This document shows, in pieces, positions 1,037 to 50,533 of a stretch of DNA of 64,000 bases. Below the pieces are notes generated by a model. The model worked only from the letters and a program-made list of their open reading frames with translations. It had not been told where the DNA came from and made no database searches. Every line of letters begins with the position of its first letter. Positions within the stretch are counted from its first letter, which is position 1. Source of the stretch: an uncultured Actinomycetes bacterium (lineage in GTDB: Bacteria > Actinomycetota > Acidimicrobiia > Acidimicrobiales > Acidimicrobilacustridaceae); NCBI GenBank assembly GCA_963702555.1, contig CAVPCW010000011.1:499753-563752 (forward strand), read 5' to 3'. The translations under genes were made by a program, and so were the position numbers.

Positions 1037-1801
1037 CTACTTCGGGGGGAAGCGCAGGGCGCCGTCGAGGCGGATGTTCTCGCCGTTGAGGTAGCTGTTG
1101 CGGGCGATGTGCTCGACGAGCAGCCCGAACTCCTCGGGGCGGCCCATCCGCTTCGGGTTGATGATGCTGGACACGAGGTGGTCGCGGAACGCCTCGGGCG
1201 CGCCCATCATGAGCGGGGTGCCCATGGTGCCGGGGGCGATGGCGCAGACGCGCACGCCGAGTGCGGCGAGGTCGCGGGCGAGCGGGAGGGTCATGCCGAG
1301 GATCGCCGCCTTGGCCGCCCCGTAGGCGATCTGGCCGGTCTGGCCCTCGATGCCGGCGATCGAGGCGGTGTTGACCACCACGCCGCGCTGACCGTCCTCG
1401 TCGGGCTCGTTGGCCGCCATGGCCGAGGCGACGAGACGGGTGACGTTGAACGTGCCGAACGCGTTCAACGTCATGACGCCCTTGAAGGCCTCCATGTCGT
1501 GGGGTGCGCCGTCGCGACCGACGGTGCGGGCGCTGATGCCCCCGCCGGCGACGTTGACCACCAGTGACAGCGGACCGAGGGCCTGGGCGGCCTCGATCGA
1601 GCGGGCCACGTCGGCGTCGTCGTTGACGTCGCCACCCACGGCGGCTCCCGAAGGCAGTGTGGCTGCGAGGGCCGCGGCCCCCGCATCGTCACGGTCGAAC
1701 ACGACCACGCCCATCCCGACGTCGGCCAGCCGTTGCACGGTCGCCGCGCCGAGCCCACCGGAACCGCCGGTCACGATCGCGGAGCGTCCAGTCAGTTCCA
1801 C
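1037..1801 (-). CDS. Short-chain dehydrogenase/reductase, 3-hydroxyacyl-CoA dehydrogenase-like
   Basis: 254-aa ORF with a GTG start preceded by GGGGGA. It has the Rossmann motif TGGSGGLG and SDR-like length and composition. Confidence 0.85.
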   Translation of the reverse strand: MELTGRSAIVTGGSGGLGAATVQRLADVGMGVVVFDRDDAGAAALAATLPSGAAVGGDVNDDADVARSIEAAQALGPLSLVVNVAGGGISARTVGRDGAPHDMEAFKGVMTLNAFGTFNVTRLVASAMAANEPDEDGQRGVVVNTASIAGIEGQTGQIAYGAAKAAILGMTLPLARDLAALGVRVCAIAPGTMGTPLMMGAPEAFRDHLVSSIINPKRMGRPEEFGLLVEHIARNSYLNGENIRLDGALRFPPK

Positions 1802-5437: not shown

Positions 5438-6646
5438 TCAGACCTTGACGTGCTCCTTCACGCCCATGAGTCGGGCCAGGTTGCCGCCCATGATCTTGGC
5501 CTTGTCCGTTTCGGTGAACTCGCTCAGTTCGTCGACGAAGGAGATCGGGTCGGCCAGTCCCTCGGGGTGCGGGTAGTCGGAGCCGAAGATCACGTTGTCG
5601 ACGCCGATCAGGTCGGCCAGCCCCCTCGGGTCGTCCTCGTGGAACGGGTGCACGTAGACGCACCGCTTGAAGACCTCGACGGGATCCTCCTCGAAGCTGG
5701 TGGGGTTGAACTTGTACGCGTGCTCCATCGAGGAGATCAGCGGTCGCACCCAGCCCGAGCCGTTCTCCACGGGGGCGAGGCGGAGGTCCGGGAAGCGGCT
5801 CAGCATCCCGTGGCCGATGGCCGACGCGATGGTGTCGGAGATGGCCCGTCCCCCGCCGCCGGTGATGGCCGCGAAGCCCGAGCCGCCCTTGAAGGGGAGG
5901 AACTCCCCGCCGCGTACGCCCTCCCACTCGTTGATGTAGCGCTGGTAGCCGCTGTCGCTGGCGTGCATGCCGACGAGGATGCCCGCCTCCTGGACCTTCT
6001 CCCAGAACGGGTCGAACTCGGGAAGGGCGAACGATCGTGAGGTCTGGAACCCGGGTACGGGGGCCGGCCGCACGAGGATGACCCTCGCGCCGCGCGCGAG
6101 CACCCACTCGAGCTCCTCGATGGCCTTCTCGACGACCGGGAGGGTGATCACCGGCGTCGGGAAGATGCGGTCGTCGAAGTTGAAGGTCCACTGCTCGTAC
6201 ATCCACTGGTTCAGTGCGTGGACCACGGCGTGGATCGCCAGCGGATCGTCGCGCAGGCGTTCCTCCACGAGGCTGGCCAGCGTCGGCCACATGAGCGAAC
6301 GGTCGATGCCCAGCTCGTCCATCAACTCGATGCGCGGACCGGGCTCCCGGAACGCCGGCGGCGACTCGATGGCCTTGCCCATGATCTCCCGGCGGGACTT
6401 GCCCTCGGGGTTCCCGATGCGGAAGTACTCCTCCTGGGCTCCCGGAGCCGCCACCTTGGCGAAGGTGGGGTTGGGGATGTAGTCGCTGATCTGGCCCTTG
6501 ACCGTGATCTTGGTGCGGCCCTTCACCTCGACGTAGTCGATGACGCCCTTGTAGTCGTCCGCGATGTACTTGGTGAGCGCGTCCGGGGTCTCGTACATGT
6601 GGTTGTCGCAGTCGAAGACCGGGAAGTCGAGCTGGCGTGAGGGCAT
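5438..6646 (-). CDS. Amidohydrolase_2 family metal-dependent hydrolase/decarboxylase-like protein
   Basis: ORF 5438-6694; the internal ATG at 6646 has an AGGGA RBS. Motifs FDCDNHMYE near the N-terminus and FGSDYPHPEG near the C-terminus. Confidence 0.85.
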   Translation of the reverse strand: MPSRQLDFPVFDCDNHMYETPDALTKYIADDYKGVIDYVEVKGRTKITVKGQISDYIPNPTFAKVAAPGAQEEYFRIGNPEGKSRREIMGKAIESPPAFREPGPRIELMDELGIDRSLMWPTLASLVEERLRDDPLAIHAVVHALNQWMYEQWTFNFDDRIFPTPVITLPVVEKAIEELEWVLARGARVILVRPAPVPGFQTSRSFALPEFDPFWEKVQEAGILVGMHASDSGYQRYINEWEGVRGGEFLPFKGGSGFAAITGGGGRAISDTIASAIGHGMLSRFPDLRLAPVENGSGWVRPLISSMEHAYKFNPTSFEEDPVEVFKRCVYVHPFHEDDPRGLADLIGVDNVIFGSDYPHPEGLADPISFVDELSEFTETDKAKIMGGNLARLMGVKEHVKV

Positions 6647-6703
6647 GGCAAGGGTCCCTTCTCGTGATGGCGCCGTCGCGGTGGCGTTCGTCACGAAGTG
6701 TAG

Positions 6704-6821: not shown

Positions 6822-7802
6822 GTGGTCGAGGTGACCGTCGAGCTCGTCGATCACCCGTGGTTCGCGACGTCGGTGCTGCGACCCGATCAGGACGTGCTCG
6901 ACCTGCTGGCGGCGCGTGCCGCCGAAGAAGGTGGTCGCGCGCCGTCCGACATGCCGAGGTTCCTCTTCGGGTACGTGCCGGTGCAGGTGTTCGACGACCT
7001 GTTCTCGGGCCGAGGTGACATCCCCGACCCGACGGCCCGCTGGCTGCTCTACCTCTCGGGGTACTTCGGGGGTCGTTGGCTGCGGGCCGCCATCGCGGCC
7101 GCTCAGCCCGAGGCACCCCTGGTCGCGTTCTCGGTCGAACCGACCGCTGAGGCCTTCGCCACGGCCATGAGCCGCGCGGCGCGGGCGGTCGAGGCGGCTG
7201 CCGCCGAGGACGCGACGGTGCTCGCCTTCGCGTGGTCGAGCCTGTTGGACGAGCCGCCGGCGGAGCCCGGCGGGACGGCGGTCCCTGGGCTGGTCGACTC
7301 GTTCGGCTACAACGCCGGCTACAACCTCGAGATCCTCGCCGCCCCGCCCGTGGGGCTCGCGGCCGCGCCGCACCACCGGGTGTCCTGCACCGGGCTCCTC
7401 CGATGTGCCTTCGCCACCCCCCGGCTCGCCGCCACCTCCCCCCTCGTGGCGGTGGCCGACGCGCTGAACGGGACCGATCCCGCCTATGGCGACGCGCGGG
7501 TAGTGCTGCAGCCGCTCCAGGACGCCGCGCTCCCCCGTGGGCGGTCGGTGTGGAGCACCGGGCTGTCGGTGCAGGGGTTCGACCAGGTCGACTACGACCA
7601 GTTGCTCGAGGTGAGCTCGTCGTTCCTCGAGACCGTCCAGGCCGCCGCGCTGACCATGGTCCGGGCCCACGTGACCGCCGACCCGACTGCCGCCCGCACC
7701 GGCGCACGGGCGGCGGCCGCCATGGTGGTGTGGCTCGATGCCTACATGGTCGGCCTCCTGGACGGGAGCGACGGGCCGACGCTTCCCCGGTTCGTCGGCT
7801 GA
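6822..7802 (+). CDS. Hypothetical protein, 326 aa, no family recognised
   Basis: GTG start. Third codon positions are strongly G/C-biased and the Ala/Leu/Asp/Val composition is ordinary. The overlapping minus-strand ORFs are Arg/Pro/Gly-rich shadows. Flanked by operator boxes and followed by a ferredoxin. Confidence 0.6.
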   Translation: MVEVTVELVDHPWFATSVLRPDQDVLDLLAARAAEEGGRAPSDMPRFLFGYVPVQVFDDLFSGRGDIPDPTARWLLYLSGYFGGRWLRAAIAAAQPEAPLVAFSVEPTAEAFATAMSRAARAVEAAAAEDATVLAFAWSSLLDEPPAEPGGTAVPGLVDSFGYNAGYNLEILAAPPVGLAAAPHHRVSCTGLLRCAFATPRLAATSPLVAVADALNGTDPAYGDARVVLQPLQDAALPRGRSVWSTGLSVQGFDQVDYDQLLEVSSSFLETVQAAALTMVRAHVTADPTAARTGARAAAAMVVWLDAYMVGLLDGSDGPTLPRFVG

Positions 7803-7867: not shown

Positions 7868-8062
7868 ATGCGAGTCGAGTTCGATCAAGAGGCCTGCACC
7901 GGTCATGGCCGGTGCTACGCCCTCGCTCCCGAGTTCTACGGCGCGGACGACGACGGCTACTGCGTGGACCCGAGCGGGGCCGTGCCCCCCGCGCTCGAGG
8001 CCGCGGCGCGCCGCGGCGCCTACAACTGCCCCGAGAACGCCATCACGATCGTCGAGGGTTAG
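7868..8062 (+). CDS. Small 3Fe-4S-type ferredoxin (P450 redox partner type)
   Basis: 64 aa. It has CTGHGRC ... NCP cluster ligands (CxxHxxC...CP), typical of actinobacterial P450-associated ferredoxins. Confidence 0.85.
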   Translation: MRVEFDQEACTGHGRCYALAPEFYGADDDGYCVDPSGAVPPALEAAARRGAYNCPENAITIVEG

Positions 8063-9357
8063 CGGGCGCGGGCCTCGGCCGATCGGGCGGGTTCGAGCCC
8101 CAGCAGTCCCCGGCGCACGATGAGACCGGCCGCGTCGACGGCCTGCTCCTCGGTGACGTACCCGAGCACCAGCATGCTGTAGGGAACCCTCTCGATGACC
8201 GACAGCAGCACGATGGCATCGACGGTCGAATCGCCGAAGCCGCGTCGGTTCACGATCCGCACCAGGCGGTCGAAGGCCACCGTGGCGATCCCGAGGGAGA
8301 ACTCCGCCAGCGCCGGATCGGATTGTCCGATCTCCTGCCAGGCGCTCAGGATGCCGCCGTTGTCGCTGTAGGTGGTGACCCACCGTTGCAGCCAGGAGCG
8401 AACGGCCGTCTCGCTCGCGTCGTCGGGGAAGTCGCCGAGCAGGTCGACCATCGCCGTCGCGGCGGTGGTGGCCAGCACCTGGAAGAGGTCGTCCTTGCTG
8501 TCGAAGTAGCGGTAGAAGCTGCCATGGGAGATGCCGGCCTCCTCGACGATGTCGTCGATGCGCGTCTCGTGGTAGCCGAGGATCGGCAGCACGGCACTCC
8601 CGGCCTGGAGCAGTTGGCCACGGGTCTGTTGGCCGCGTGGTCTCAGTGGCCTGGCCGCACGGTGATCCGGGGGCGACACCGGCCACTTCGGCACTCGCTT
8701 GGGCGGTGGCTTGACGACCGGTCCGACGTTGACGCCGGGGATCGTCCCGAACAGCAGTCGATGAAGCGACTGGGCGAGGCCATCGAGGAAGCGGCCGCGC
8801 GCGATCTGGCCGAGACCGAGACGCCAGTAGTGGATGGCCCTGAGCATGACCGAGACGGTGACGCTCGCCGTCGGTCGGCGGGCCACGTCGGGTCGATCGA
8901 GGTCCCGCAGGATCGCTTCACCGAGGCGCTCGCTGACGCTGCGCGACCCCTTCGCGGTGCGGGCCTGCTCGCGCATGGCCGCTTGGAAGGCGGCGAGGAG
9001 CGGGGCATAGGTGTCGCACAGGTCGACGACCTCGTCGAGCCAGACCCGCAAGGTGTCCACACCCGACGCATCCGGGTCGACGGTGCCCAGGCGATGGCTG
9101 ATGGCGTCCATCTCCTTCGCCATCTGGGCCGCGAGGCGCCAGAAGACGTCCTCCTTGCTGGCGAAGTACTGGTAGAACGCCGGTCGGGAGCAGCCGGCCG
9201 CCTTGGTGATGAGCTCGACGCGGGTTTCGTGGTAGCCCTTCTCGCCGAACACGTCGAGGGCGGCGTCGAGGATCCGCCGTTGGGTGGTCGCACCCCGTTC
9301 CCCGACGAGGGGGTTGTCCCCGAACGGCGAGCGCCGGGTCACGTCGACTGAATTCAC
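8059..9357 (-). CDS. Single-chain tandem TetR-family regulator (two HTH modules, ~432 aa; Mce3R-like architecture)
   Basis: This is the C-terminal part of the 1118-aa track ORF, with an in-frame GTG at 9357 (VNSVDVTRR). Two TetR_N modules are present: RRILDAALDVFGEKGYHETRVELITKAAGCSRPAFYQYFASKEDVF and RGQLLQAGSAVLPILGYHETRIDDIVEEAGISHGSFYRYFDSKDDLF. Confidence 0.8.
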   Translation of the reverse strand: MNSVDVTRRSPFGDNPLVGERGATTQRRILDAALDVFGEKGYHETRVELITKAAGCSRPAFYQYFASKEDVFWRLAAQMAKEMDAISHRLGTVDPDASGVDTLRVWLDEVVDLCDTYAPLLAAFQAAMREQARTAKGSRSVSERLGEAILRDLDRPDVARRPTASVTVSVMLRAIHYWRLGLGQIARGRFLDGLAQSLHRLLFGTIPGVNVGPVVKPPPKRVPKWPVSPPDHRAARPLRPRGQQTRGQLLQAGSAVLPILGYHETRIDDIVEEAGISHGSFYRYFDSKDDLFQVLATTAATAMVDLLGDFPDDASETAVRSWLQRWVTTYSDNGGILSAWQEIGQSDPALAEFSLGIATVAFDRLVRIVNRRGFGDSTVDAIVLLSVIERVPYSMLVLGYVTEEQAVDAAGLIVRRGLLGLEPARSAEARAR

Positions 9358-9434: not shown

Positions 9435-10175
9435 TCACGACGCGGGTGGTCGATCGATCACGGCGACGTCGTCGATGTGCGCCGGTGACTCGAGCACGTG
9501 CAGCACGGTGGCGGCGACGTCGTCGGGGCTCATGATGCCTTCGGAGCCGAGGACCCCCGAGGCCAGCCAACGTTCGGTGGCCGCCTCGATGGCGTCGGGG
9601 TCCCACGTCGTCGCGAAGTCGGTGTCGCCGGTGTTGCCGACCACGACCCGCGTGACGAGCAGGCCAGGGAACTCGAGGGGGAGGCATCGCATCAGCCCGT
9701 CGAGGGCGAACTTGGAGGTGGTGTAGAGGGCCAGGTCCGGGAACGGCCGGCGCACCGCCTTCGACGAGAGGATCACCAGCTGGCCTCCGCTGGCCACCAG
9801 GTGGGGGGCCGCTGCCGTGCTGACGAGGGCCGCGCCGATCACGTTGGTGTCGAAGACCTGGTGCCAGTCGGCCTGGGTGGCGTCGGCCATCGCCAGCAGC
9901 GGCGACATGCCGACGGTGTGCACGACGGCGTCGAGTCCTCCGAGCGCGGCGACGGCGCCATCGACCACCGCGGAGACGGAGGTCTCGTCGCGGACGTCGC
10001 CCGGAAGGGCGACCGTCCCGGGATGGGCGGCGACCAACTCGGCCAGTCGCTCCTCGCTGCGGGCGCTCACCGCCACCCTGGCCCCCCGGGAGGCGGCCAG
10101 GCGGGCCACCGCGGCGCCGATGCCGGACGAGGCCCCGACGACGAGGATGCGCTTGCCCGCAAGGATGTCGCTCAT
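9435..10175 (-). CDS. Short-chain dehydrogenase/reductase
   Basis: ORF 9435-10217; ATG 10175 is preceded by GGGGGAG. Starts MSDILAGKRILVVGASSGIG. It lies directly upstream of the TetR gene on the same strand. Confidence 0.85.
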   Translation of the reverse strand: MSDILAGKRILVVGASSGIGAAVARLAASRGARVAVSARSEERLAELVAAHPGTVALPGDVRDETSVSAVVDGAVAALGGLDAVVHTVGMSPLLAMADATQADWHQVFDTNVIGAALVSTAAAPHLVASGGQLVILSSKAVRRPFPDLALYTTSKFALDGLMRCLPLEFPGLLVTRVVVGNTGDTDFATTWDPDAIEAATERWLASGVLGSEGIMSPDDVAATVLHVLESPAHIDDVAVIDRPPAS

Positions 10176-10237
10176 CGAACTCCCCCAACTGAAGAAATCT
10201 GGTGGCTCGGCTTGCATCCCGCTCGCCGATCACTAAT

Positions 10238-10254
10238 CTAACACTTCTGTCACT
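10238..10254. promoter_or_regulatory. Candidate operator box TCTAACACTTCTGTCAC
   Basis: Lies in the relatively AT-rich divergent region between SDR-TetR (start 10175) and the amidohydrolase operon (start 10279). Confidence 0.55.
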
Positions 10255-10278
10255 TACCGAGTCGTGGGGGGCCATGAG

Positions 10279-11562
10279 ATGCAGGCAGAAGACCTGATCC
10301 TCGTCAGCGTCGACGACCACGTCGTCGAACCGCCGGACATGTTCGAGGGGCGTCTGTCGGCCAAGGCCGCGGCGCGCGCCCCGTTCGTGAAACGACTGGA
10401 CGACGGGCGCGACGTGTGGATGTTCGAGGGCAACGCCATGCCCAACGTCGGGCTCAACGCCGTGTCCGGTCGGGTGCCCGAGGAGTGGGGACTCGACGCG
10501 CTCTCCTTCGAGCAGATGCGCCCTGGCTGCTACGACATCCACGAGCGCATCCGCGACATGAACGTCAACGGCGTCCTCGGCTCCTTGAACTTCCCGAGCC
10601 TCACCGGGTTCGCCGGTCAGCTCTTCGCCACCTGCGACGACAGGGCCATCGGCCTGGAGCTCCTCCAGGCCTACAACGACTGGCACATCGACGAGTGGTG
10701 CGGCACCTATCCGGGGCGCATGATCCCCCTCACCATCCCACCGCTCTGGGACCCCGAGCTGATGGCGGCCGAGATCCGGCGCACCGCCGCGAAGGGGAGC
10801 CATGCCGTCACCTTCTCCGAGAACCCCGAGAAGCTCGGCTACCCCAGCTTCCACAGCGACCACTGGGACCCGTTCTGGCAGGCCTGTTGTGACACCGACA
10901 CCGTGGTGTGCATGCACATCGGGTCGTCCTCGACGCTGGTGTCCACGTCCTCCGATGCCCCTCTCGACACCCTCATCACCCTCCAGCCCATGAACATCGT
11001 CCTGTGCGCCGCCGACCTGCTGTGGTCGCCGGTGCTGCGCAAGTTCGACAAGCTGCGCGTCGCCCTCTCCGAAGGCGGCATCGGGTGGGTGCCCTACTTC
11101 CTGGAGCGGGTCGACTACACGTACCAGCACCACCACACCTGGACCAACCAGGACTTCGGCGGCAAGTTGCCGAGCCAGGTGTTCAACGAGCACATCCTCA
11201 CCTGCTTCATCGACGACGCCGCCGGCATGGAGGTGCGCCACCACCTCAACGGCGACCACATCATGTGGGAGTGCGACTATCCCCACTCCGACTCGACCTG
11301 GCCGAATGCACCCGAGATGGCATGGAAGTACCTGCACGGCCTGCCCGAGGACGAGATCCACAAGATCACCCACCTGAACGCCATGCGGGCCTTCTCGTTC
11401 GATGCCTTCTCCCACGTCCCGCGTGAGGAGGCGACCGCCGGCGCCCTGCGAGCCCAGGCCGCGGACGTCGACACGACGCTCGTCAGCTACGGGACCGGCA
11501 AGTTCCAGGACGAGGGCCTGGTGACCACCATGTCCCTCGTGCAGCGGATGGCGAACCGGTAG
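10279..11562 (+). CDS. Amidohydrolase_2 family protein
   Basis: ORF 10264-11562; ATG 10279 lies behind a G-run RBS. Motifs VSVDDHVVEPPDMF and WECDYPHSDSTWP. Confidence 0.85.
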   Translation: MQAEDLILVSVDDHVVEPPDMFEGRLSAKAAARAPFVKRLDDGRDVWMFEGNAMPNVGLNAVSGRVPEEWGLDALSFEQMRPGCYDIHERIRDMNVNGVLGSLNFPSLTGFAGQLFATCDDRAIGLELLQAYNDWHIDEWCGTYPGRMIPLTIPPLWDPELMAAEIRRTAAKGSHAVTFSENPEKLGYPSFHSDHWDPFWQACCDTDTVVCMHIGSSSTLVSTSSDAPLDTLITLQPMNIVLCAADLLWSPVLRKFDKLRVALSEGGIGWVPYFLERVDYTYQHHHTWTNQDFGGKLPSQVFNEHILTCFIDDAAGMEVRHHLNGDHIMWECDYPHSDSTWPNAPEMAWKYLHGLPEDEIHKITHLNAMRAFSFDAFSHVPREEATAGALRAQAADVDTTLVSYGTGKFQDEGLVTTMSLVQRMANR

Positions 11563-15044: not shown

Positions 15045-15061
15045 CTGACGGACCGGTCAGA
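15045..15061. other. Box-like palindrome CTGACGGACCGGTCAGA at a convergent gene junction
   Basis: It matches the operator pattern but lies between two gene ends and overlaps the ligase stop codon at 15057-15059. It could instead act as a small terminator hairpin. Confidence 0.25.
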
Positions 15062-17538: not shown

Positions 17539-17594
17539 CGTGTCCTGCCTCCTCGTCGGGCGAGGCCGAGGGTAGCGAAGAAAGCACCCGGCAT

Positions 17595-17611
17595 CTGACG
17601 CGTGCGTCAGC
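17595..17611. promoter_or_regulatory. Candidate operator box CTGACGCGTGCGTCAGC
   Basis: Near-perfect palindrome in the divergent region between TesB-FadD (start 17538) and the ABC importer operon (start 17648). Confidence 0.5.
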
Positions 17612-23938: not shown

Positions 23939-25276
23939 TCAGCGGGAACGGGCGGGTGCCCAGACCTCGGAGGGACCGCCGGCTGCGGGCGTGTCCCAGA
24001 GCAGCTGCCGGCGTCGGGCTCGGCGCACCAGGAGGTCGAGGAGCCTGTGGTCGCCGGCGCCGGCGGCCGCGGAGGCGAGATCGGCCAGGTCCGCGTCCAC
24101 CGCGCCGGCCCCGAGGGTGGCGCGGAGGTCGCCGGCCTCGAGCGACTGCAGTTCGTCGTTGAGGTGTTCCCTCGCCTCGTCGTGTTCCAGGACCAGGAGT
24201 CGATCGCGGATCCGCAGCTTCGCCACCGGGTCGGTGTCGGCGGCGAGCTCGTCACGGAGATCGTGGATGGTCGCGGCGCGGGTCGACGTGTCGCCGATCG
24301 TGGGAGGCTCCGGAACCTCCGCCGTCGTGGGCGTGAACCCCACGGCGTCGGCGAGGGCGCAGCCGAGCCCGGTGAGGAAGCGGTGGTGGGGGGCCATGTA
24401 GGCGTTGAGCCCGAGGGCGCCGCCGCCGCGGTGGATGACCGCTCCGGTCGTGACCGCGCAGCGGAGCTGGACCATCGCCGCGTAGTAGCGCACCGCTTCC
24501 GGGTCAACGGCGCACCCGGTCGCCTCCTCGTACAGTTGGTCGCGGCGTCCGGTGTCGGCGAACGCCCCCCGCTGACCGGAGCGCATGTCGATCCAGGCGA
24601 TGTCGTCCATCGGATCGCCGAGGTGGGCGAACTCCCAGTCGACCAGGCCCGTGACGACGCCGGCCTCGTGCAGGAAGTTCCCCGGCCCGGTGTCTCCCTG
24701 GACGAGGGCGGTGCGGCTGACCGCGCCGGGTGCCATCCGCTGGAGCCAGCCGAACCCGTACACGATCATCGGTTCGCTCATCAGCCCGTTCGCCGTGGCG
24801 ATCCGGCGCCAGCGATCGAGGTCGTCGAGGGCGTGGGCCTCGGCGGAGGTGGGGCTGGTGAAGCCGGGGAGATCGAGGTCGGAGGGGTCGAGGCGGTGGA
24901 GCGCACCGAGCGCACCGAAGAAGCCGGCCAGCACCCGGCCGGCCTCGGGGCCGTCCTCGTCGTCGATCCTGGCCGTGCCCGGGAGGCGCTCGAGCACGAG
25001 TGTCTCGCCGTCAGGAGCCGTGGCGATCAGATCGGCGATCGGCGGCCCCGTGTCCTTCAGCGCCCGGTAGACCACGGCTTCGCGTGCCAGGGAGAACGCC
25101 GTCCCGCCGAAGGCCCCTCCTTCTCCCTGCTGTCGCACGACGATCCGACGGGAGTCCTCCGGTCGACCGATCTCGACGAACCACGTCTCACGGGAGCCCC
25201 CGCCGAAGCTGCGGCGCGCCGAGGTGATCGGGCCGTCGAGCTCGGCCTCGAGCCAGCGTCGGAGGTCGGCGTCCAC
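23939..25276 (-). CDS. Phosphotransferase (APH/choline-kinase-like) family protein with a ~110-aa C-terminal extension
   Basis: 445 aa. Catalytic-loop-like LVQGDTGPGNFL and GLVDWEFAHLGDPMDDIAW. Confidence 0.8.
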   Translation of the reverse strand: MDADLRRWLEAELDGPITSARRSFGGGSRETWFVEIGRPEDSRRIVVRQQGEGGAFGGTAFSLAREAVVYRALKDTGPPIADLIATAPDGETLVLERLPGTARIDDEDGPEAGRVLAGFFGALGALHRLDPSDLDLPGFTSPTSAEAHALDDLDRWRRIATANGLMSEPMIVYGFGWLQRMAPGAVSRTALVQGDTGPGNFLHEAGVVTGLVDWEFAHLGDPMDDIAWIDMRSGQRGAFADTGRRDQLYEEATGCAVDPEAVRYYAAMVQLRCAVTTGAVIHRGGGALGLNAYMAPHHRFLTGLGCALADAVGFTPTTAEVPEPPTIGDTSTRAATIHDLRDELAADTDPVAKLRIRDRLLVLEHDEAREHLNDELQSLEAGDLRATLGAGAVDADLADLASAAAGAGDHRLLDLLVRRARRRQLLWDTPAAGGPSEVWAPARSR

Positions 25277-25288
25277 GGGCCGACTCCG

Positions 25289-26569
25289 TCAGATGCCGCG
25301 ACGGGCGTTGTCCAGCTCGATGTGGCGGGCGTGCAGCTCGACCGCCTTGTGCGCCAGCTCGTGGGGGACCGTCGCGAACATCGGCAGTCCCGCCGTCCGC
25401 GACGGCAGCCCCACCGTGGCCTTGCCGTTGGCGGTCTCGACTCCGCGCTGGTTGACCATCGTGAGCTCGATGTCGACGACGTGGCCGGCCTCCTCGACCC
25501 GCTTGTCGACCACCGACGCGCTGAGGAACTGGGTGTCGCCCTGGTAGTTGAACTTGCGGATCGAGTCCTCGAGGCGCAGGAGGCAGCCGTCGTCGCCCAT
25601 CCAGTCGGTGACGTGGTGTTGGAACCAGCTCTGGCGCATGACCCCGTAGTCGTAGGCCATCGGGTTGCCGATGGCCTGGGCCCACGCCGAGTCCCAGTGC
25701 AGGCGTTGTGCCACGTCGGGGACACCCATCTCGTTCTTGATGTAGAAGGGCCTGATACGGGTCCGGTTCTTGTAGCCGACACGCGAGGAGCGCAGGCCGT
25801 AGGGCACGAATCCGTACCCGCCGGCATGGAAGGCGATGATCTCGGTGACGGTGAGCGGGCCCTTCACCATCGGCTGCAGCTCGTCACCGACGGCCACGTC
25901 CTCCCACCACCGCTTCTCCGGACCCCGTACCTCTTCGTTGGAGTAGATCTCGTCGATCCGTGCGATGTCGTCGTCGGTGTAGTGAGCCGGCTCGATGTCG
26001 AGGTACTTGCCGCGGTCGCGGGACTCCTTGCGGGCGGTGAGGATGGTGAGCACCCGGTAGACCCCGACGACCTCCACGCGCTGGTTGAAGATGGCCTGAC
26101 GGCTGACCTGGATCACCGAGCGGCCGGCGAACTCGGAGTCCTTCGTCTCGACGGACTCGAGCCCGCTGAAGCTGTAGAGGCGGTCGCCGGGATAGACCTG
26201 TCGGTAGAAGTCCCACGTCCCGCCGGAGACGAAGACGTGGATGCCGCGGAACAGGCCCTTGGTGGCTCGGGCGATGTCCTTGGGGATCGGGTCGCCCAGC
26301 AGCGGGGCCTTGAGATGGCCGATGAAGGTGGGTGACGCCACCTGTGAACCCCAGCGGGTCGTTGGTCCGTACTCCTCGTCGACGTGCAAGGGGTTGTCGT
26401 CACCCATCCCGAGCGCCCAGTTCCGGATCGCGTCCGGCGTGGCCGTCGAGATGTGCTCCCGTCGGCGGTTCGTGGTCTCGATCCCGATGAGCAGCCGTGC
26501 GTTCTCGATGTCCTCGTCTGACAACTCGTAGGACACGGCGCGCTCGAACTCGGCTTCCAGGTCGCTCAT
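25289..26569 (-). CDS. MaoC-like/FAS1-like acyl dehydratase with two hotdog domains
   Basis: ATG 26569 (MSDLEAEF) lies behind GGGGAG, within track ORF 25289-26782. The sequence DAIRNWALGMGDDNPLH is typical of the N-terminal hotdog, and the second half is MaoC-like. Confidence 0.75.
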   Translation of the reverse strand: MSDLEAEFERAVSYELSDEDIENARLLIGIETTNRRREHISTATPDAIRNWALGMGDDNPLHVDEEYGPTTRWGSQVASPTFIGHLKAPLLGDPIPKDIARATKGLFRGIHVFVSGGTWDFYRQVYPGDRLYSFSGLESVETKDSEFAGRSVIQVSRQAIFNQRVEVVGVYRVLTILTARKESRDRGKYLDIEPAHYTDDDIARIDEIYSNEEVRGPEKRWWEDVAVGDELQPMVKGPLTVTEIIAFHAGGYGFVPYGLRSSRVGYKNRTRIRPFYIKNEMGVPDVAQRLHWDSAWAQAIGNPMAYDYGVMRQSWFQHHVTDWMGDDGCLLRLEDSIRKFNYQGDTQFLSASVVDKRVEEAGHVVDIELTMVNQRGVETANGKATVGLPSRTAGLPMFATVPHELAHKAVELHARHIELDNARRGI

Positions 26570-26610
26570 CCCGGCTCCCCTTTCCCCCCGGCTGCCCAGT
26601 CGGGCCACCG

Positions 26611-28335: not shown

Positions 28336-29340
28336 ATGGCCGAGGGTGACCAGCGACTGCTCACGCCGGCAGACGACGACTTCCATGCCCCGGTGGCGGA
28401 CGAGTGGTGGTCCCACGAGACGTGCTGGTTCTGGTTCTCGGTGCCCGAGAGGGCGTTGGGGGCCTGGATCTACAACTGGATCCGACCGAACATCGGCGTC
28501 ACCGGTGGGGGGGTGTCGGTCTGGGATGACAGCACCTCCTCGCACTGGGAGGCGCCGTACCACTCGAACTACTCCAACCTGCGTCTGCCCGCGCCGCGTG
28601 ATCTCCGCCGGATCACCTTCCCGACGGGGGTGTCGGTGGAGATGCTGGAACCCCTGAGCCGCTACCGCCTCTCCTTCGCCGACGAGCCGATGATCTCCTT
28701 CGACCTGGAGTTCGCCGCGGTGATGGAACCCTGGGTGAGCGTGGTCGAGGTCGACGGGGTTCCGCGGCCCAACCACTTCGACCAGTTCGGACGGGTCACC
28801 GGATCCCTCGACCTGCACGGGGAGCAGATCGAGGTCGACTGCCTCGCCATACGCGACCGCACGTGGACGATTCGATCCGAACGGTGGAGGCGCGGGGGCG
28901 GGTACGGCTACACGAGCGCGGCGGCCGACTCCGGCGAGTCGTTCCTCGTCATCGGCGACGAGGAGTCGGTTCACGGCTTCGTGGTGCTCGATGGGCGGAG
29001 GTCGGGGCTGGTTGCCGGTGGTCGGCGGGTCGAACGCCATCCGGAGCACGGGTATGTCACCCGGGTGATGATCGACGCCGCGGACACCGAGGGCAGGACG
29101 CTGGTGGCCGAGGGTCGGTCGATCAGTCGGATCGCCATGCCCGTCCCGGGCGTCCACGGAGTGGTGTGGGCCAGCGTCGTGGCCTGGACGATCAACGGTG
29201 TCGCGGCATGGGGGGACGATCAGGAGCCGTGGCCGGTCACGGGCTGGTCGAGGCTGCCGTCGAAACTGACATCGGCGTCAGGTAGTCGCTACGCTCTTCC
29301 CAGCGGACGTACCGGGGGGTCGTGGTGCAGCTCGGGTTGA
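28336..29340 (+). CDS. Hypothetical Trp-rich protein, 334 aa, embedded in the hydratase-ACAD operon
   Basis: Good G/C third-position bias. The N-terminus reads EWWSHETCWFWFSVPERALGAWIYNWIRPN. I could assign no enzyme family with confidence. Its 3' end overlaps the next ACAD start and contains a box. Confidence 0.65.
   Translation: MAEGDQRLLTPADDDFHAPVADEWWSHETCWFWFSVPERALGAWIYNWIRPNIGVTGGGVSVWDDSTSSHWEAPYHSNYSNLRLPAPRDLRRITFPTGVSVEMLEPLSRYRLSFADEPMISFDLEFAAVMEPWVSVVEVDGVPRPNHFDQFGRVTGSLDLHGEQIEVDCLAIRDRTWTIRSERWRRGGGYGYTSAAADSGESFLVIGDEESVHGFVVLDGRRSGLVAGGRRVERHPEHGYVTRVMIDAADTEGRTLVAEGRSISRIAMPVPGVHGVVWASVVAWTINGVAAWGDDQEPWPVTGWSRLPSKLTSASGSRYALPSGRTGGSWCSSG
29266..29282. promoter_or_regulatory. 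Candidate operator box CTGACATCGGCGTCAGG
   Basis: Lies 40 nt upstream of the ACAD GTG at 29322, inside the 3' end of the preceding ORF. Confidence 0.4.
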
Positions 29341-33034: not shown

Positions 33035-33860
33035 GTGACCGTGGACGATCCGCTGCAGTACGAGGGCGCCCGTGTGGTGGTGACCGGAGCCGCCTCGGGC
33101 ATGGGTGCGGCGTGTGCTGCTGCGCTCACCGAGCTGGGCGCGGAGGTGCACGGCATCGACATCAACGACGGCGGCGGGGGACTGGCGGCGTTCCACCGCT
33201 GCGACCTCGGGGATCCCGCGTCGATCGACGCCACGGTCGCCGAGATCGGCGGGTCGGTCGACTCCCTGTTCAACTGTGCCGGCCTGCCGACCACGGCCCC
33301 GAGCCAGAAGATCGTGCTCGTGAACTTCGTCGGACACCGGCACCTGACCGAGGCACTCATCCCTCACATGGGGCCTGGCTCGAGCATCGGGTTCATCTCC
33401 TCGGCCGCCGGCATGGGCTGGATCATGAACATGGCGAACTTGTACGGCCTGCTGATGACCCCCGACTTCGAGGCCGCCCAGGCCTGGTGCGCGGACAACG
33501 CCGTGCTCATCGGCGAGAACGGTTACGGGTTCTCGAAGGAAGCCATCAACGCCTATGCGGCCTTCCGTGGCTTCCAGCTGGCTCCCGAGGGGATCCGGGT
33601 GAACGCCATCATGCCGGGCCCGACCGACACGCCGATGATGCCGTCCTTCGTCGAGAGCATGGGGCGAGGAGTTCTTCCAGGCGTTCCCCAAGCCGGTCGG
33701 ACGGAACTCGACGCCCGAGGAGCAGGCCTGGCCGCTCATCATGCTCAACAGCAGGCGTTCGAGCTACGTCACCGCGACGACGTTGATGACCGATGGAGGG
33801 TTCTCCGGTGGTATCTACACCGGTGGCATCGACCCGTCGGTGCTGACGCCGCCGGCCTGA
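33035..33860 (+). pseudogene. Short-chain dehydrogenase/reductase interrupted by a +1 frameshift (pseudogene or sequence error)
   Basis: The frame from 33035 is SDR-like (VVVTGAASGMG) up to ...TPMMPSFVESMG. After the G-run at 33661-33664 the sensible sequence continues only in the next frame: EEFFQAFPKPVGRNSTPEEQAWPLIMLNSRRSSYVTATTLMTDGGFSGG..., ending at TGA 33858-33860. Confidence 0.7.
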
Positions 33861-33884
33861 GACCTGTCGCCCAGGCGACGGGAG

Positions 33885-35108
33885 TCAGAGGATGGCGCCC
33901 GAGGCCTTCATCGCCTCGAGGTCGTCCCAGTCGAGGCCGGCGGCCAGCAGCACCAGTTCCGTGTGCTCGCCGTGCTCCGGGCACCGGCTGACCTCGACCG
34001 CCTGCTCGTCGAACTGGGCGGGGCTGGCCACGAGCTGGACCTCCTGGCCGTTGCCGGCGGTCATGGTGGGCAGATAGCCGTTGGCGATGACCTGGGGGTC
34101 CTCGTAGAGCTCGTCGAGGGTCTGGAACGGGGTCCACACGCCGTCGAAGTCGGCCAGCGCCTCCTTCCAGTGGGAAAGAGGGTGTGCGCCGAACGCCTCG
34201 TCGAGCAGGGTGATGCACTCGGCGCTGTTCTCCGCCCGGGCGGCGTGGTCGATGAAGCGCTCGTCGGTGGCCATCTCGGGCCTGCCGAGCCGGCGCACGA
34301 AGTCGGTCCAGAACTTGTCGCTCTGCAGGAGGATGAGGCTGATGTACCGGTCATCGGCGGTGCGATAGGCCCCGACCACGGGGTTGGGCGACAGCTTGCG
34401 GTCGCTCTGCTGGGGCATCTTCGTCATCCCGAAGAGCTTCGAGGCCACGATCAGAGGGGAGATCTGCCACATGGCCGTGGCCAGCAGGGACACGTCGACG
34501 ACGCTGGTCTCACCGGTGTTGGCCCGCTTGAACAACGCCGCGGCGATGGCGCCGGCCGTGGCGAGCCCGCCCATCACGTCGCCGTACGCCGGCCCCGGCT
34601 GACCCGCCGGCCACCCTTCGGCGTTCTCGGGCAGGATCGAGGCCATGCCGCTGCGGGCCCAGAACGAGGCGCCGTCGTAGCCGCCCTTCTCGGCATCGGG
34701 CCCCTTGGGACCCTGCCCGGTGCCCTTGGCGATGATGATCCGGGGGTTCCGGGCGCGGATGTCCTCGATGTCGATGCCCAGCTTCCGCCGGACCTTGGGC
34801 ATGTAGTTCGTGAGCAGCACATCGGCGGTCTCGACGAGCTTCAGGAACGCCTCGTGTCCATCGGGTTTGGTGAGATCGATGGCCACCGACTGCTTGCCCC
34901 GGTTGGGCTGCTCCATCATGAAGTTCACCCCGCCCGCGCCACCGGGTACGAGGCCGGACGTGACGAGGCCCCGTTGCGGGTCACCACCCAGCGGAGGTTC
35001 CACCTTGATGACCTCGGCCCCCCAGTCGACGAGCACGGCGCCCCCCGACGGGATGAACATCCAGCTCGACAGTTCGATGACGCGAATGCCGTCCAATGGT
35101 CCTGACAT
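33885..35108 (-). CDS. Family III CoA-transferase (CaiB/BaiF type)
   Basis: ATG at 35108 (MSGPLDGIRVIELSSWMFIPSGGAVLVDWGAEVIKVEPP). This is the C-terminal 407 aa of the 817-aa track ORF. Confidence 0.9.
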   Translation of the reverse strand: MSGPLDGIRVIELSSWMFIPSGGAVLVDWGAEVIKVEPPLGGDPQRGLVTSGLVPGGAGGVNFMMEQPNRGKQSVAIDLTKPDGHEAFLKLVETADVLLTNYMPKVRRKLGIDIEDIRARNPRIIIAKGTGQGPKGPDAEKGGYDGASFWARSGMASILPENAEGWPAGQPGPAYGDVMGGLATAGAIAAALFKRANTGETSVVDVSLLATAMWQISPLIVASKLFGMTKMPQQSDRKLSPNPVVGAYRTADDRYISLILLQSDKFWTDFVRRLGRPEMATDERFIDHAARAENSAECITLLDEAFGAHPLSHWKEALADFDGVWTPFQTLDELYEDPQVIANGYLPTMTAGNGQEVQLVASPAQFDEQAVEVSRCPEHGEHTELVLLAAGLDWDDLEAMKASGAIL

Positions 35109-39694: not shown

Positions 39695-40597
39695 CTAGGC
39701 CGGCGCAGCGGCGCGAGCGGTGGTCTTCTCGGCCGGCACGACCGGCGCAGCGTCTTTCCAGGGGGCGACGCCGTCGGCGGGCTGGGCCGCCGGGAAGCGG
39801 TCGTCATGTACCTCCGCCCAGTGGGAGTGGTTGAGCTGGTGGATCGTGAAGCACACGTTGAGGGCGTTGTGGAAGCCCTGGTTGTCGACGGTCTGGTTGA
39901 CGGACTCCTTGATCATGAGCGCGGTCATCGTCGGCAGCTCGGCGATCCGACGCGCCAACTCGTTGGTCCGCGCCGCGAGGTCGTCGCGCGGGAAGACCTT
40001 CGACACCATGCCGAGGCGGTGGGCCTCGTCGATGTCGAGGCTGTCCCCGGTCAGGAGGAGCTCCTTGGCCTTGCGGGGCCCGAACTCCCACGGGTGGGCG
40101 AAGTACTCGAGCCCGCACATGCCGAGCCGGGTGCCCACGACATCGGCGAAGGTGACGTCGTCGGCGCCGACGATCAGGTCGCAGGCCCACATCAACATCA
40201 GCCCGGCCCCGTAGACCTTGCCGTGGACCTCGGCGATGGTGATCTTGCGCAGGTTCCGCCACCGCAGCGTGTTCTGGAAGTAGTAGTGCCACTCGCCGAG
40301 CATCCGGGCCTCGGCTCCCTTGCGGGTGGCGCCGTTGATCTTGAACGTCGGATGGTTGGCGTACTCGTCACGAGCCTGGGCCGAGCCCATGTCGTGCCCC
40401 GACGAGAAGAGCGTCCCCTCGCCGCCCAGGATCACCACCCGCACCTGATCGTCGGCCTGGGCGCGCATGAACGCGTCGTCGAGCTCGACGAGCATGCCGC
40501 GGTTCTGGGCGTTCCTCGCCTCGGGTCGGTCGAGCATGATTCGGGCGATGAGGCCGTCGTCGAGGGTCTCGTAGCTGATGAACTCGTACTCGGGCAT
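39695..40597 (-). CDS. Enoyl-CoA hydratase/isomerase family protein (~300 aa)
   Basis: ORF 39695-40645; ATG 40597 lies behind GAGGAG (MPEYEFISYETLDDGLIARIMLDRPEARNA). Confidence 0.85.
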   Translation of the reverse strand: MPEYEFISYETLDDGLIARIMLDRPEARNAQNRGMLVELDDAFMRAQADDQVRVVILGGEGTLFSSGHDMGSAQARDEYANHPTFKINGATRKGAEARMLGEWHYYFQNTLRWRNLRKITIAEVHGKVYGAGLMLMWACDLIVGADDVTFADVVGTRLGMCGLEYFAHPWEFGPRKAKELLLTGDSLDIDEAHRLGMVSKVFPRDDLAARTNELARRIAELPTMTALMIKESVNQTVDNQGFHNALNVCFTIHQLNHSHWAEVHDDRFPAAQPADGVAPWKDAAPVVPAEKTTARAAAPA

Positions 40598-40649
40598 CGG
40601 GGTGCTCCTCTGGCGATGGTCTCCGACGGGGAGTGATGGCGCCACGTAG

Positions 40650-49642: not shown

Positions 49643-50533
49643 TCAGGTCGGGGGGCGGCCGCCGGCCTGGCGGCTGATCACGGCCGCGCAGTCGCGCACC
49701 TTGCGGCCGGCCTCGGCGACGGTGGAGGCCGGCAGGCCCCAGGGGAAGCCGGTGGCGCTCACCGCCGCGATCACGCCGCCGTCGGGCCCGAACACGGGCG
49801 CGGCCACGATGCCGACGTCGAAGTGGTGGTCGTCGTCGAGCTCGACGACGGGGTAGTCCTCCCGGGCGAGGGCGGCGAACAGCTCGGCCACGTCGTCGCG
49901 CAGCTCGGTGCGACCGGGGTCGTCGGTGAGGGTGAAGGCCCGCTCGCCGAGCATGCGCTGGGCGTCGGAGCCGGCGGTGACGGCGAAGCCGCGTGACCGC
50001 ACCAGCTCGAGCGCGTCCCGGCACCGGGCCACGGCCCCGGCCGAGCCCTCCGGCGTGCGGGCCAGCCAGTCCTCGACGTCGTCGGGGTCGGCCCACGCCA
50101 TGAACACCGCGCCGAACGGGGGCACGAGCGGCACCCTCTCGCCCTCGCGCACCGCGGGCCCGTAGGGCGTGGGCTCGCCGGCGCGGGCCACGAAGATGAT
50201 CTCGTCGACGGTGCGGGCGGCGAGGACGACCTCGGTGCCGAGCTCGGCGGCGAGCGGGCCGATCAGGCGCCGGCCGGCCTCGACGCCGGGCTGGTGCTCG
50301 AGGGCCACCACGCCGGCGACCACCAGCGCGGGGCCGAGGGTGTAGGCCTTCGTGGTCGGGTGCCGGCTCACGTGGCCGCTCTGCTCGAGCACCGCCAGCA
50401 CGGCGTGGGCCGACCCGAGGCTCATCCCCGTGCGCCGCACCAGCTCGCTGAGGGTGAAGCGCTCGGTGGGGTGGGTGACCAGCAGGTCGAGCACCTGGAC
50501 GGCACGGGCGGCGGCGGGTGCGGGTCGGGCCAT
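49643..50533 (-). CDS. IclR-family transcriptional regulator
   Basis: ATG 50533 within ORF 49643-50638. N-terminal wHTH RAVQVLDLLVTHPTERFTLSELVRRTGMSLGSAHAVLAVLEQSGHV, followed by an IclR effector-domain-like C-terminus. Confidence 0.85.
   Translation of the reverse strand: MARPAPAAARAVQVLDLLVTHPTERFTLSELVRRTGMSLGSAHAVLAVLEQSGHVSRHPTTKAYTLGPALVVAGVVALEHQPGVEAGRRLIGPLAAELGTEVVLAARTVDEIIFVARAGEPTPYGPAVREGERVPLVPPFGAVFMAWADPDDVEDWLARTPEGSAGAVARCRDALELVRSRGFAVTAGSDAQRMLGERAFTLTDDPGRTELRDDVAELFAALAREDYPVVELDDDHHFDVGIVAAPVFGPDGGVIAAVSATGFPWGLPASTVAEAGRKVRDCAAVISRQAGGRPPT

Follow-up and report, generated by a model that had tools for sequence, protein, structure and literature searches.

The question raised by this locus is which protein reads a short DNA box that recurs between the genes of a catabolic cluster of an uncultured bacterium of the Acidimicrobiales, and in what manner. 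The window, i.e. the whole stretch of DNA that was analyzed, comprises 64,000 nucleotides of contig CAVPCW010000011.1 (positions 499,753 to 563,752). At positions 8059 to 9357 it encodes a regulator in which two TetR units are combined in one polypeptide. We propose that this double-TetR regulator is a single-chain pseudo-dimeric repressor which binds the asymmetric box, regulates its own synthesis and controls the surrounding catabolic genes. We assign a probability of about 0.8 to this proposal.

Two TetR units in one polypeptide

The original prediction, made from the nucleotide sequence, had located two TetR N-terminal DNA-binding modules about 220 amino acids (aa) apart in a single chain of 432 aa and had expected the Pfam family TetR_N (PF00440) to match twice. 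A search with the whole regulator gave two matching stretches (E value 5.8e-32). When the halves were searched separately, residues 1-222 scored 60.8 bits with a helix-turn-helix (HTH) at residues 29-72 and residues 223-432 scored 52.4 bits with an HTH at residues 261-293. The gathering cutoff of PF00440 is 24 bits. Thus, each half belongs to the TetR family in its own right. The regulator gene and its parts are as follows.

8059..9357, minus strand: double-TetR regulator gene, 432 aa plus stop codon, GTG start codon at 9357, uninterrupted open reading frame (ORF)
9142..9273, minus strand: first TetR_N HTH, residues 29-72, with the recognition helix ...GCSRPAFYQYF...; 60.8 bits to PF00440
8641..8745, minus strand: inter-unit linker, residues ~205-239 (...GVN...P...LRPRG), ordered and conserved
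8479..8640, minus strand: second DNA-binding domain, residues 240-293 (Pfam HTH 261-293), with the recognition helix ...ISHGSFYRYF...; 52.4 bits to PF00440

The GTG codon at 9357 was identified as the start codon by an N-terminal alignment of 50 homologues of 409-453 aa, all of which share the N-terminus M-D-G-x-x-V-V-R-R-x-P-F-G-x-N-P. The two halves of the protein are related to each other. BLASTP aligned them over 187 aa with 28% identity (66.6 bits, E value 3e-18), and the comparison of both halves as family profiles using hhalign extended over 190 columns (probability 99.7%, E value 1.2e-26) and included both the HTHs and the helices of the ligand domains. The invariant residues of the recognition helices are distinct (first HTH, SRPAFYQYF; second HTH, SHGSFYRYF). 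In the first HTH residues C56, S57, R58, P59, Y62, Q63, Y64 and F65 are invariant among 51 homologues. In the second HTH the homologue alignment revealed S277, F281, Y282, R283 and F285 as invariant; the conservation of H278 and G279 reaches 90% or more. The linker region is conserved as well, with N210, R241 and G242 invariant and V209, P226 and R239 conserved to at least 90%. Two complete TetR-family regulator (TFR) units in one polypeptide, retained across the homologues, place the protein among the double TFRs.

An AlphaFold2 model of the regulator was built from the 51-sequence alignment. It showed one compact fold with a mean predicted local distance difference test score (pLDDT) of 90.1 and a predicted template modelling score (pTM) of 0.88. 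Nine helices are formed by residues 16-203 and nine to ten by residues 240-431. Each HTH is followed by a helical ligand-domain-like segment of its own, as had been suspected from the sequence, and the TFR fold of about nine helices with a C-terminal ligand/dimerization domain is present in each half of the predicted model. The pLDDT fell below 50 solely in the first nine residues, and the linker blocks reached values of 82-97. Since the pTM of the whole chain is high, the halves are confidently positioned relative to each other. A Foldseek search against the PDB yielded chain A of 9b7y, the complex of Mce3R with DNA, as the top match (424 columns, template modelling (TM) scores 0.55/0.61, E value 4.5e-7, 16% identity). 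Among the matches listed it was the sole full-length one; the others covered about 200 columns, i.e. one half, and each half of the model superposes individually on solved TFRs. The pTM of 0.88 and the match to 9b7y predict an intrachain pseudo-dimer, in which an asymmetric four-helix bundle would join the two units, in agreement with the earlier suggestion that one chain mimics a TetR homodimer.

Distribution of the operator boxes

The core pattern of the box, TGACNNNNNNGTYAGA (TGAC-N6-GTYAGA), occurred 10 times in the window. The expected number was 0.22, and the maximum reached in dinucleotide-preserving shuffles was 2. In addition, a weight matrix of 23 bp was trained only on sites of eight orthologous loci from other organisms (L024-L031); the window was excluded from training in order to avoid circularity. 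With this matrix 13 distinct sites above 12 bits were detected in the window, compared to 0.82 in Markov-shuffled windows. All 13 sites are located between 1.8 and 40.7 kb, twelve of them are intergenic, and no matrix site was detected in the 41-64 kb part of the window. The highest score, 32.1 bits, belongs to the site ahead of the operon formed by a short-chain dehydrogenase/reductase (SDR) gene and the regulator gene. The sites are given below with their matrix scores; ACAD and ECH stand for acyl-CoA dehydrogenase and enoyl-CoA hydratase, respectively.

10234..10256 (core 10237-10252), minus strand: putative autoregulatory box TAAG-TGACAGAAGTGTTAGA-TTA between the SDR start at 10175 and the Amidohydro_2 start at 10264/10279; 32.1 bits
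1842..1857, plus strand: box 41 bp upstream of SDR gene 1037-1801 (minus strand), which an acyl-CoA synthetase gene follows; exact core, 25.9 bits
2773..2788, minus strand: first box of a pair in the divergent ECH/ACAD promoter region; exact core, 21.3 bits
2863..2878, plus strand: second box of this pair, 90 bp from the first; one core mismatch, 24.3 bits
6705..6720, plus strand: box beside the start of Amidohydro_2 gene 5438-6694 (minus strand), orthologous to L024:12737 and L025:12746; exact core, 30.0 bits
6748..6763, minus strand: box upstream of the conserved unknown gene 6822-7802 (plus strand), 43 bp from box 6705; exact core, 19.8 bits
7819..7834, minus strand: box 34 bp upstream of the ferredoxin gene; exact core, 27.1 bits
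15046..15061, plus strand: doubtful box where two convergent genes end; it overlaps a stop codon; exact core, 13.7 bits, near the null level
17594..17609, minus strand: box between a thioesterase/acyl-CoA synthetase operon (minus strand) and an ABC-transporter/cytochrome P450 operon (plus strand); exact core, 26.1 bits
29265..29280, minus strand: box within the 3' end of gene 28336-29340; the ACAD start at 29322 lies 42 bp downstream; two mismatches to TGACNNNNNNGTTAGA, 23.0 bits
32996..33011, minus strand: box upstream of SDR gene 33035 (plus strand); one core mismatch, 18.1 bits
37964..37979, minus strand: box between P450 gene 36723-37922 (minus strand) and acyl-CoA synthetase gene 38113 (plus strand); exact core, 23.5 bits
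40651..40666, plus strand: last box of the window, between ECH gene 39695-40645 (minus strand) and MTHFR gene 40732 (plus strand); exact core, 29.8 bits

Box 29265 is the sole matrix site within coding sequence. Counterparts in the orthologous loci were found for box 7819 (L024:11527 with one mismatch, L026:11535 exact) and for box 17594 (L024:1793, L025:1743, L026:6030). The site at 15046 was treated as doubtful because of its score near the null level; a chance match or a segment of a terminator hairpin is the probable explanation.

The half-sites of the box are systematically unlike

According to the original prediction many boxes are asymmetric. However, the search pattern itself imposes AGA on one side. 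For this reason the window and the eight orthologous loci were rescanned with the symmetric core T[GA]AC-R-N4-Y-GT[CT]A and the flanks on both sides were compared. Among the 48 sites obtained, a TC flank was present on exactly one side in 32, on both sides in 3 and on neither side in 13, which deviates from independence (chi-square test, p = 0.006). The half next to the TC flank reads TAAC in 15 of the 32 one-sided sites, whereas the opposite half never does (0/32; Fisher's exact test, 7e-6). Conversely, TA at positions -4/-3 accompanies 16 of the 32 opposite halves and 2 of the 32 TC-flanked halves (p = 2e-4). The one-sided TC flank in 32 of the 48 sites bears out the predicted asymmetry.

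The operator can be written as aTCTrAC-R-N4-Y-GTCA-ksTA, with a common TGAC/GTCA core surrounded by two unlike shells, aTCTrAC on one side and TAsmTGAC on the other. In its other form it is the 20-bp quasi-palindrome TAsm-TGAC-R-N4-Y-GTyA-GAT. The same asymmetry was found in 56 distinct, putatively autoregulatory sites from metagenomes. Their consensus is A-T-G-TGAC-G-nnGn-T-GTTAGA-TTA-s-C, and its half-sites ATGTGACG and ATCTAACA are unlike at three of eight positions. The palindromes of either half-site were defined as A-A (TCTAAC...GTTAGA) and B-B (TAGCTGAC...GTCAGCTA).

The box accompanies the regulator gene in related genomes

Homologues of the regulator were collected in a word-index search, which yielded 863 proteins at E values of at most 1e-10. 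The best 120 of these 863 (49-100% identity) were examined and are nearly all of full length; the few named ones stem from metagenome-assembled genomes (MAGs) of Acidimicrobiales or Actinomycetota. An exhaustive search of 1.84 billion representatives resulted in 151 clusters at E values of at most 1e-30. Most of them comprise proteins of 410-460 aa that match from end to end, down to ~28% identity.

The eight long contigs L024-L031 carry orthologues of 50-85% identity in a recurring neighbourhood with a divergent Amidohydro_2 gene, with or without an intervening SDR gene, and a convergent ferredoxin gene. A ChsH2-OB/thiolase pair, ACAD pairs, an ABC importer and a P450 recur as well. Boxes are present in all eight loci, always including one ahead of the regulator operon, and this box has the orientation known from the window in seven loci. 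Further 76 usable metagenome loci contained orthologues of 36-70% identity. An exact box oriented with the regulator gene was found within 200 bp upstream in 60 of them, farther upstream beyond an intervening gene in 2, and in the opposite orientation only in 3. No exact box was present in a coding control of 76 × 1.2 kb. Where the SDR gene is present, the box lies ahead of it; where it is absent, the box directly precedes the regulator gene. This placement fits co-transcription and autoregulation. Moreover, the regulator is the sole transcription factor among the Pfam-scanned genes in 1-41 kb and the only one that recurs beside the boxes of the eight loci. A scan of the genome contigs with peptide patterns of the regulator returned only distant single-domain or unrelated TetR matches, the patterns being too specific. 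Taken as comparative genomics, these data strongly support the double-TetR regulator as the candidate reader of the boxes.

The promoter of the SDR-regulator operon

It had been proposed that the regulator gene is the second cistron behind SDR gene 9435-10175 and that a box at 10238 in the promoter region of the SDR gene indicates autoregulation. Gene order and box were found as described, and the conservation of the box ahead of the regulator in the long loci and in most metagenome loci is in line with the second part of the proposal. The genes at this promoter and downstream of it are the following.

9435..10175, minus strand: SDR gene, first cistron of the SDR-regulator operon, Pfam adh_short
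10264..11562, plus strand: divergent Amidohydro_2 gene (Pfam), head of an operon with genes for ChsH2-type OB-fold, thiolase-like, ACAD and PNPOx proteins
7868..8062, plus strand: 64-aa single-cluster ferredoxin, Pfam Fer4_15 (1.4e-14), convergent with the regulator gene

The gap between the SDR gene and the regulator gene is 77 bp, and the box core 10237-10252 is situated in the region of 103 bp which separates the SDR gene from the divergent Amidohydro_2 gene. An SDR of 245-256 aa is encoded at the equivalent position in L024, L025, L026 and L031. Seven of the eight long loci likewise carry an Amidohydro_2 gene that diverges from the regulator operon, and the convergent ferredoxin gene is conserved in L024-L026 and L028.

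Several orthologues exhibit the arrangement TGAC...GTTAGATTAGCCnn-ATG without a Shine-Dalgarno sequence. Here TAGATT, a -10 element of the TANNNT type, lies 6 nt before the start codon, which is the spacing expected of a leaderless transcript. This suggests that the regulator mRNA may be leaderless, with the -10 element inside the operator. The operator would then overlap the -10 element of the promoter of the regulator itself, and repression by occlusion would be plausible. In many orthologues, among them those of L046, L047, L053 and L058, an invariant TTA(G/C)C comes directly after the box, 24-45 bp upstream of the regulator start. A scan of 10150-10300 for sigma-70 and terminator consensus sequences detected nothing; hexamers of the E. 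coli type are unfit for this lineage.

Predicted mode of action and putative regulon

In the proposed mechanism the two homologous but diverged halves would pack together in one chain, which thereby would offer two HTHs that are not identical and are separated by about one turn of the DNA. Jointly these would read TAsm-TGAC-R-N4-Y-GTyA-GAT, each HTH taking one type of half-site. The regulator would repress its own SDR-regulator operon via box 10237-10252 and about ten other promoters in 1-41 kb of the window. An intermediate of the pathway would cause release from the DNA; most likely this is an acyl-CoA thioester, which may bind in a cavity between the ligand-domain halves. The gene content and the analogy to regulators of the FadR/KstR2/Fad35R type make an acyl-CoA intermediate the probable ligand, a proposal that we put forward with much lower confidence.

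The boxes lie ahead of, or between, divergent operons in 1-41 kb. These operons contain ACAD pairs, enoyl-CoA hydratases, SDRs, two Amidohydro_2 enzymes and a ChsH2-type OB-fold protein with its thiolase-like partner. They further encode two P450s and the 64-aa ferredoxin, a branched-chain-type ABC importer, an aldehyde dehydrogenase, and, for CoA metabolism, three acyl-CoA synthetases, a thioesterase and a family III CoA-transferase. At ~40.7 kb the putative regulon comes to its end. Gene 6822-7802 (plus strand), located between the double box and the ferredoxin gene, encodes a protein of 326 aa which has no Pfam match. An unannotated protein of 362-384 aa is encoded at the equivalent position in L024 and L025, and on the basis of these counterparts the gene was regarded as a conserved unknown member of the putative regulon.

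Paired boxes with distances of 43-90 bp were observed at several divergent promoters (2773/2863 and 6705/6748 in the window, 12690/12737 in L024, 12687/12746 in L025). They recall the two Mce3R sites 53 bp apart, which are bridged by a dimer of pseudo-dimers. A fixed orientation within the pairs, as expected for a C2 dimer of pseudo-dimers, was not upheld, because both inverted and direct arrangements occur (2773/2863 and 6705/6748 in the window versus 12690/12737 in L024). Likewise, the idea that the box generally keeps one orientation towards the gene downstream of it was rejected; such an orientation is conserved solely at the promoter of the regulator itself.

Alternative explanations

The boxes might be read by a regulator encoded elsewhere, either a homodimeric TetR or another HTH protein, and the double TetR might merely be a gene of the regulon with an unseen operator of its own. 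The examined 64 kb belong to a contig of at least 920 kb, and the core TGAC-N6-GTCA is palindromic, as ordinary dimers prefer. However, the box stays next to the double-TetR gene in a conserved orientation over 36-85% identity despite changing neighbours, no other transcription factor is recurrent in L024-L031, and a homodimer would leave the systematic difference between the half-sites unexplained. A second enriched motif was not noticed, though no de novo motif search was made. We regard a reader encoded elsewhere as unlikely. Still less probable is an assembly in which two chains pair N-terminal with N-terminal and C-terminal with C-terminal half (model D in PMC11667970). The result would be two symmetric TetR-like units that recognize two different palindromic operators and respond to two ligands. 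Prior to the structure of Mce3R such pairing had been regarded as an option for that protein (PMC11667970), and the paired boxes 43-90 bp apart at two divergent promoters would agree with it. The AlphaFold2 model, on the other hand, packs the two halves against each other within the chain, and the solved Mce3R, the sole full-length structural match, shows an intrachain M1-M2 fold (PMC11667970). Furthermore, only one class of motif is enriched and its sites combine one half-site of each type, so that pairing of like halves appears very improbable.

The possibility that the 432-aa protein is an artefact of assembly or annotation in which two adjacent TetR genes were fused can be considered refuted. 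DNA of high G+C content yields long spurious frames, and at this locus, due to a G+C content of ~70%, the frame of the regulator is open for 1118 codons upstream. Neither a stop codon nor a change of frame is found between the halves, though, and more than 100 homologues from independent assemblies are of equal length and align from end to end. The best 120 homologues, nearly all of full length, share the architecture and length, which excludes a frameshift or two separate genes, and the linker is both conserved and confidently modelled.

Several observations weigh against the proposal of a single-chain pseudo-dimeric repressor of the cluster. At the other promoters the box does not keep a uniform orientation towards the target genes, and 11 of the 76 metagenome loci are without a box within 1.2 kb upstream. 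The GTTAGATT half at the own promoter of the regulator resembles a -10 hexamer, so that the asymmetry there could partly reflect the promoter. The TM-score to 9b7y amounts to only 0.55-0.61, and the assignment of an acyl-CoA ligand is based solely on gene context. Finally, the host organism is known from metagenome assemblies alone, with Acidimicrobiales MAGs as its closest named relatives.

Comparison with Mce3R and other TetR regulators

The double-TetR architecture is neither rare nor unprecedented. Mce3R (Rv1963c) of Mycobacterium tuberculosis, named as the architectural precedent in the original prediction, has been recognized as a double TetR and is the prototype of this class; a list of 204 similar actinomycete proteins dates from 2013 (PMC3711444). 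A literature search for other characterized double or tandem TetRs led to PMC3711444 alone besides the Mce3R papers; PMC3511530 mentions Mce3R in passing only. The cryo-electron microscopy structure of Mce3R with DNA from 2024 revealed an intrachain M1-M2 pseudo-dimer which uses two unlike HTHs on a non-palindromic site of 25 bp (PMC11667970). Two such sites 53 bp apart are occupied by a C2 dimer of pseudo-dimers, and orthologues of Mce3R are confined to a subset of pathogenic mycobacteria (PMC11667970).

Mce3R and the regulator described here have in common two TetR units in a chain of ~400-430 aa with a whole-chain fold that aligns over 424 columns (PDB 9b7y), an N-terminal basic arm which is disordered or poorly modelled, as well as two non-identical HTHs and an asymmetric operator, which for the regulator from the window is a predicted one. 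Autoregulation and the control of lipid genes of the β-oxidation type including ACAD pairs, both predicted here, and certain promoters with two sites tens of bp apart are further common features. The differences are considerable. The structural alignment contains 16% identical residues, and a phmmer comparison (E value 1.3e-7) detected similarity restricted to the HTHs. Both halves of the regulator best match the M1 HTH, so that no half-to-half correspondence is given, and the host belongs to the Acidimicrobiales and not to the mycobacteria. While the sites of Mce3R are 25 bp long and lack palindromic character, the box is a compact 20-bp quasi-palindrome. The operator had not been recognized as one known from Mce3R, and it was indeed absent from the published 122-bp Probe A of Mce3R (supplement of PMC11667970), where the best matrix score was -1.2 and at least 4 of the 10 specified core bases were mismatched. 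Mce3R adjoins and controls the yrbE3A-mce3 operon. No domain of the Mce, MlaD or YrbE type was detected among the genes of the window scanned with Pfam, nor in the orthologous loci. Consequently, orthology to Mce3R was rejected on the grounds of HTH-only similarity, 16% identity, missing mce/yrbE genes and an unrelated operator. Nor was there evidence for a fusion event shared with Mce3R, in which the N-terminal half would correspond to M1 and the C-terminal half to M2, as both halves are nearest to the M1 HTH.

Each half shares the nine-helix TFR fold with the homodimeric lipid-sensing TetRs FadR of Bacillus (3whb/5gpc), KstR (3mnl), KstR2 (4w97) and EthR; Foldseek gave TM-scores to these targets of 0.47-0.69. 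A catabolic context of fatty acids or steroid-like compounds is common to them too, with acyl-CoA as the expected class of ligand. In contrast, these regulators are chains of ~200 aa that form symmetric homodimers on palindromes. Assignment to the NCBIfam equivalogs of KstR (36.8 versus 280), FadR (67.8 versus 200), FasR (70.9 versus 330) and MftR (91.1 versus 224.9) was rejected, as each bit score falls far short of the curated cutoff given after it. The half-sites of the KstR motif TnnAACnnGTTnnA and of the KstR2 motif AnCAAGnnCTTGnT are spaced by N2, those of the box by N6. A further relative in design is the engineered single-chain TetR, in which two subunits were joined head to tail (cited in PMC3711444). 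In both cases one polypeptide replaces the dimer, so that the DNA-reading heads can differ. The engineered protein is artificial and consists of identical halves connected by a flexible linker, whereas here an ordered, conserved linker joins halves of 28% identity.

The regulator is a new member of the double-TetR class and represents a large, unnamed subfamily of the Acidimicrobiales; both this family and its box are undescribed. Mce3R was described as having halves that stem from diverse TFRs fused together (PMC3711444). In contrast, the halves of the regulator from the window are homologous along their whole length, and their mutual score of 66.6 bits over 187 aa exceeds the score of either half with any solved TetR (at most 41.6 bits). 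That the halves are closer to each other than to solved TetRs is a hint that a duplication within the gene took place in this lineage, and not a fusion of unrelated TFRs. We tentatively consider that the protein arose independently of Mce3R by internal tandem duplication, after which protein halves and half-sites would have diverged together, although the chances for this origin may be slightly below even. If true, the family would hold a natural, sequence-rich record of symmetry breaking in a pair of repressor and operator.

The single double TetR studied so far, Mce3R, has a long, AT-rich operator that is hard to dissect. The present family supplies ~13 sites in one genome and the 56 metagenome sites, all of them one short quasi-palindrome, and provides the first clean operator consensus for the double-TetR class, with the binding being predicted. 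For the study of how single-chain TetRs recognize asymmetric sites the family is a clean system rich in data; it does not add a new principle. Oligonucleotide swaps could address which HTH serves which half-site, what degree of asymmetry is needed and whether one ligand frees both heads. For the uncultured Acidimicrobiales the boxes predict a regulon, a 41-kb cluster that would oxidize a lipid or a substrate resembling a sterol side chain. A compact single-chain repressor with an orientable operator could also serve as a part for synthetic biology.

Further observations in the window

The stop codons of the convergent regulator and ferredoxin genes overlap by 2 nt (TAA on the minus strand at 8059-8061, TAG on the plus strand at 8060-8062); in the orthologous loci the distance between these genes is 20-30 bp. 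The palindromic, box-like TGACGGACCGGTCAGA at 15046-15061 includes the stop codon of an acyl-CoA synthetase gene. The SDR-like ORF 33035-33991 (plus strand) matches adh_short in two separate stretches, its C-terminal third reads as out-of-frame, and it overlaps the 3' end of CoA-transferase gene 33885-35108 (minus strand). It may be frameshifted or a pseudogene. Within the cluster, with no box nearby, a gene for an APH-family phosphotransferase adjoins one for a FAS1-like (MaoC-type) dehydratase (23939-25276 and 25289-26608, both on the minus strand).

The box-free region 41000-64000 has a third-position G+C content of 0.94-0.98 versus 0.86-0.93. Its gene content is unrelated and includes two ABC exporters, a META-domain protein, an esterase and a malate/lactate dehydrogenase. 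A luciferase-like monooxygenase gene, accompanied by two SDR genes, is divergent from the gene of an IclR regulator (49643-50533), and the end of the window encodes a succinate dehydrogenase flavoprotein.

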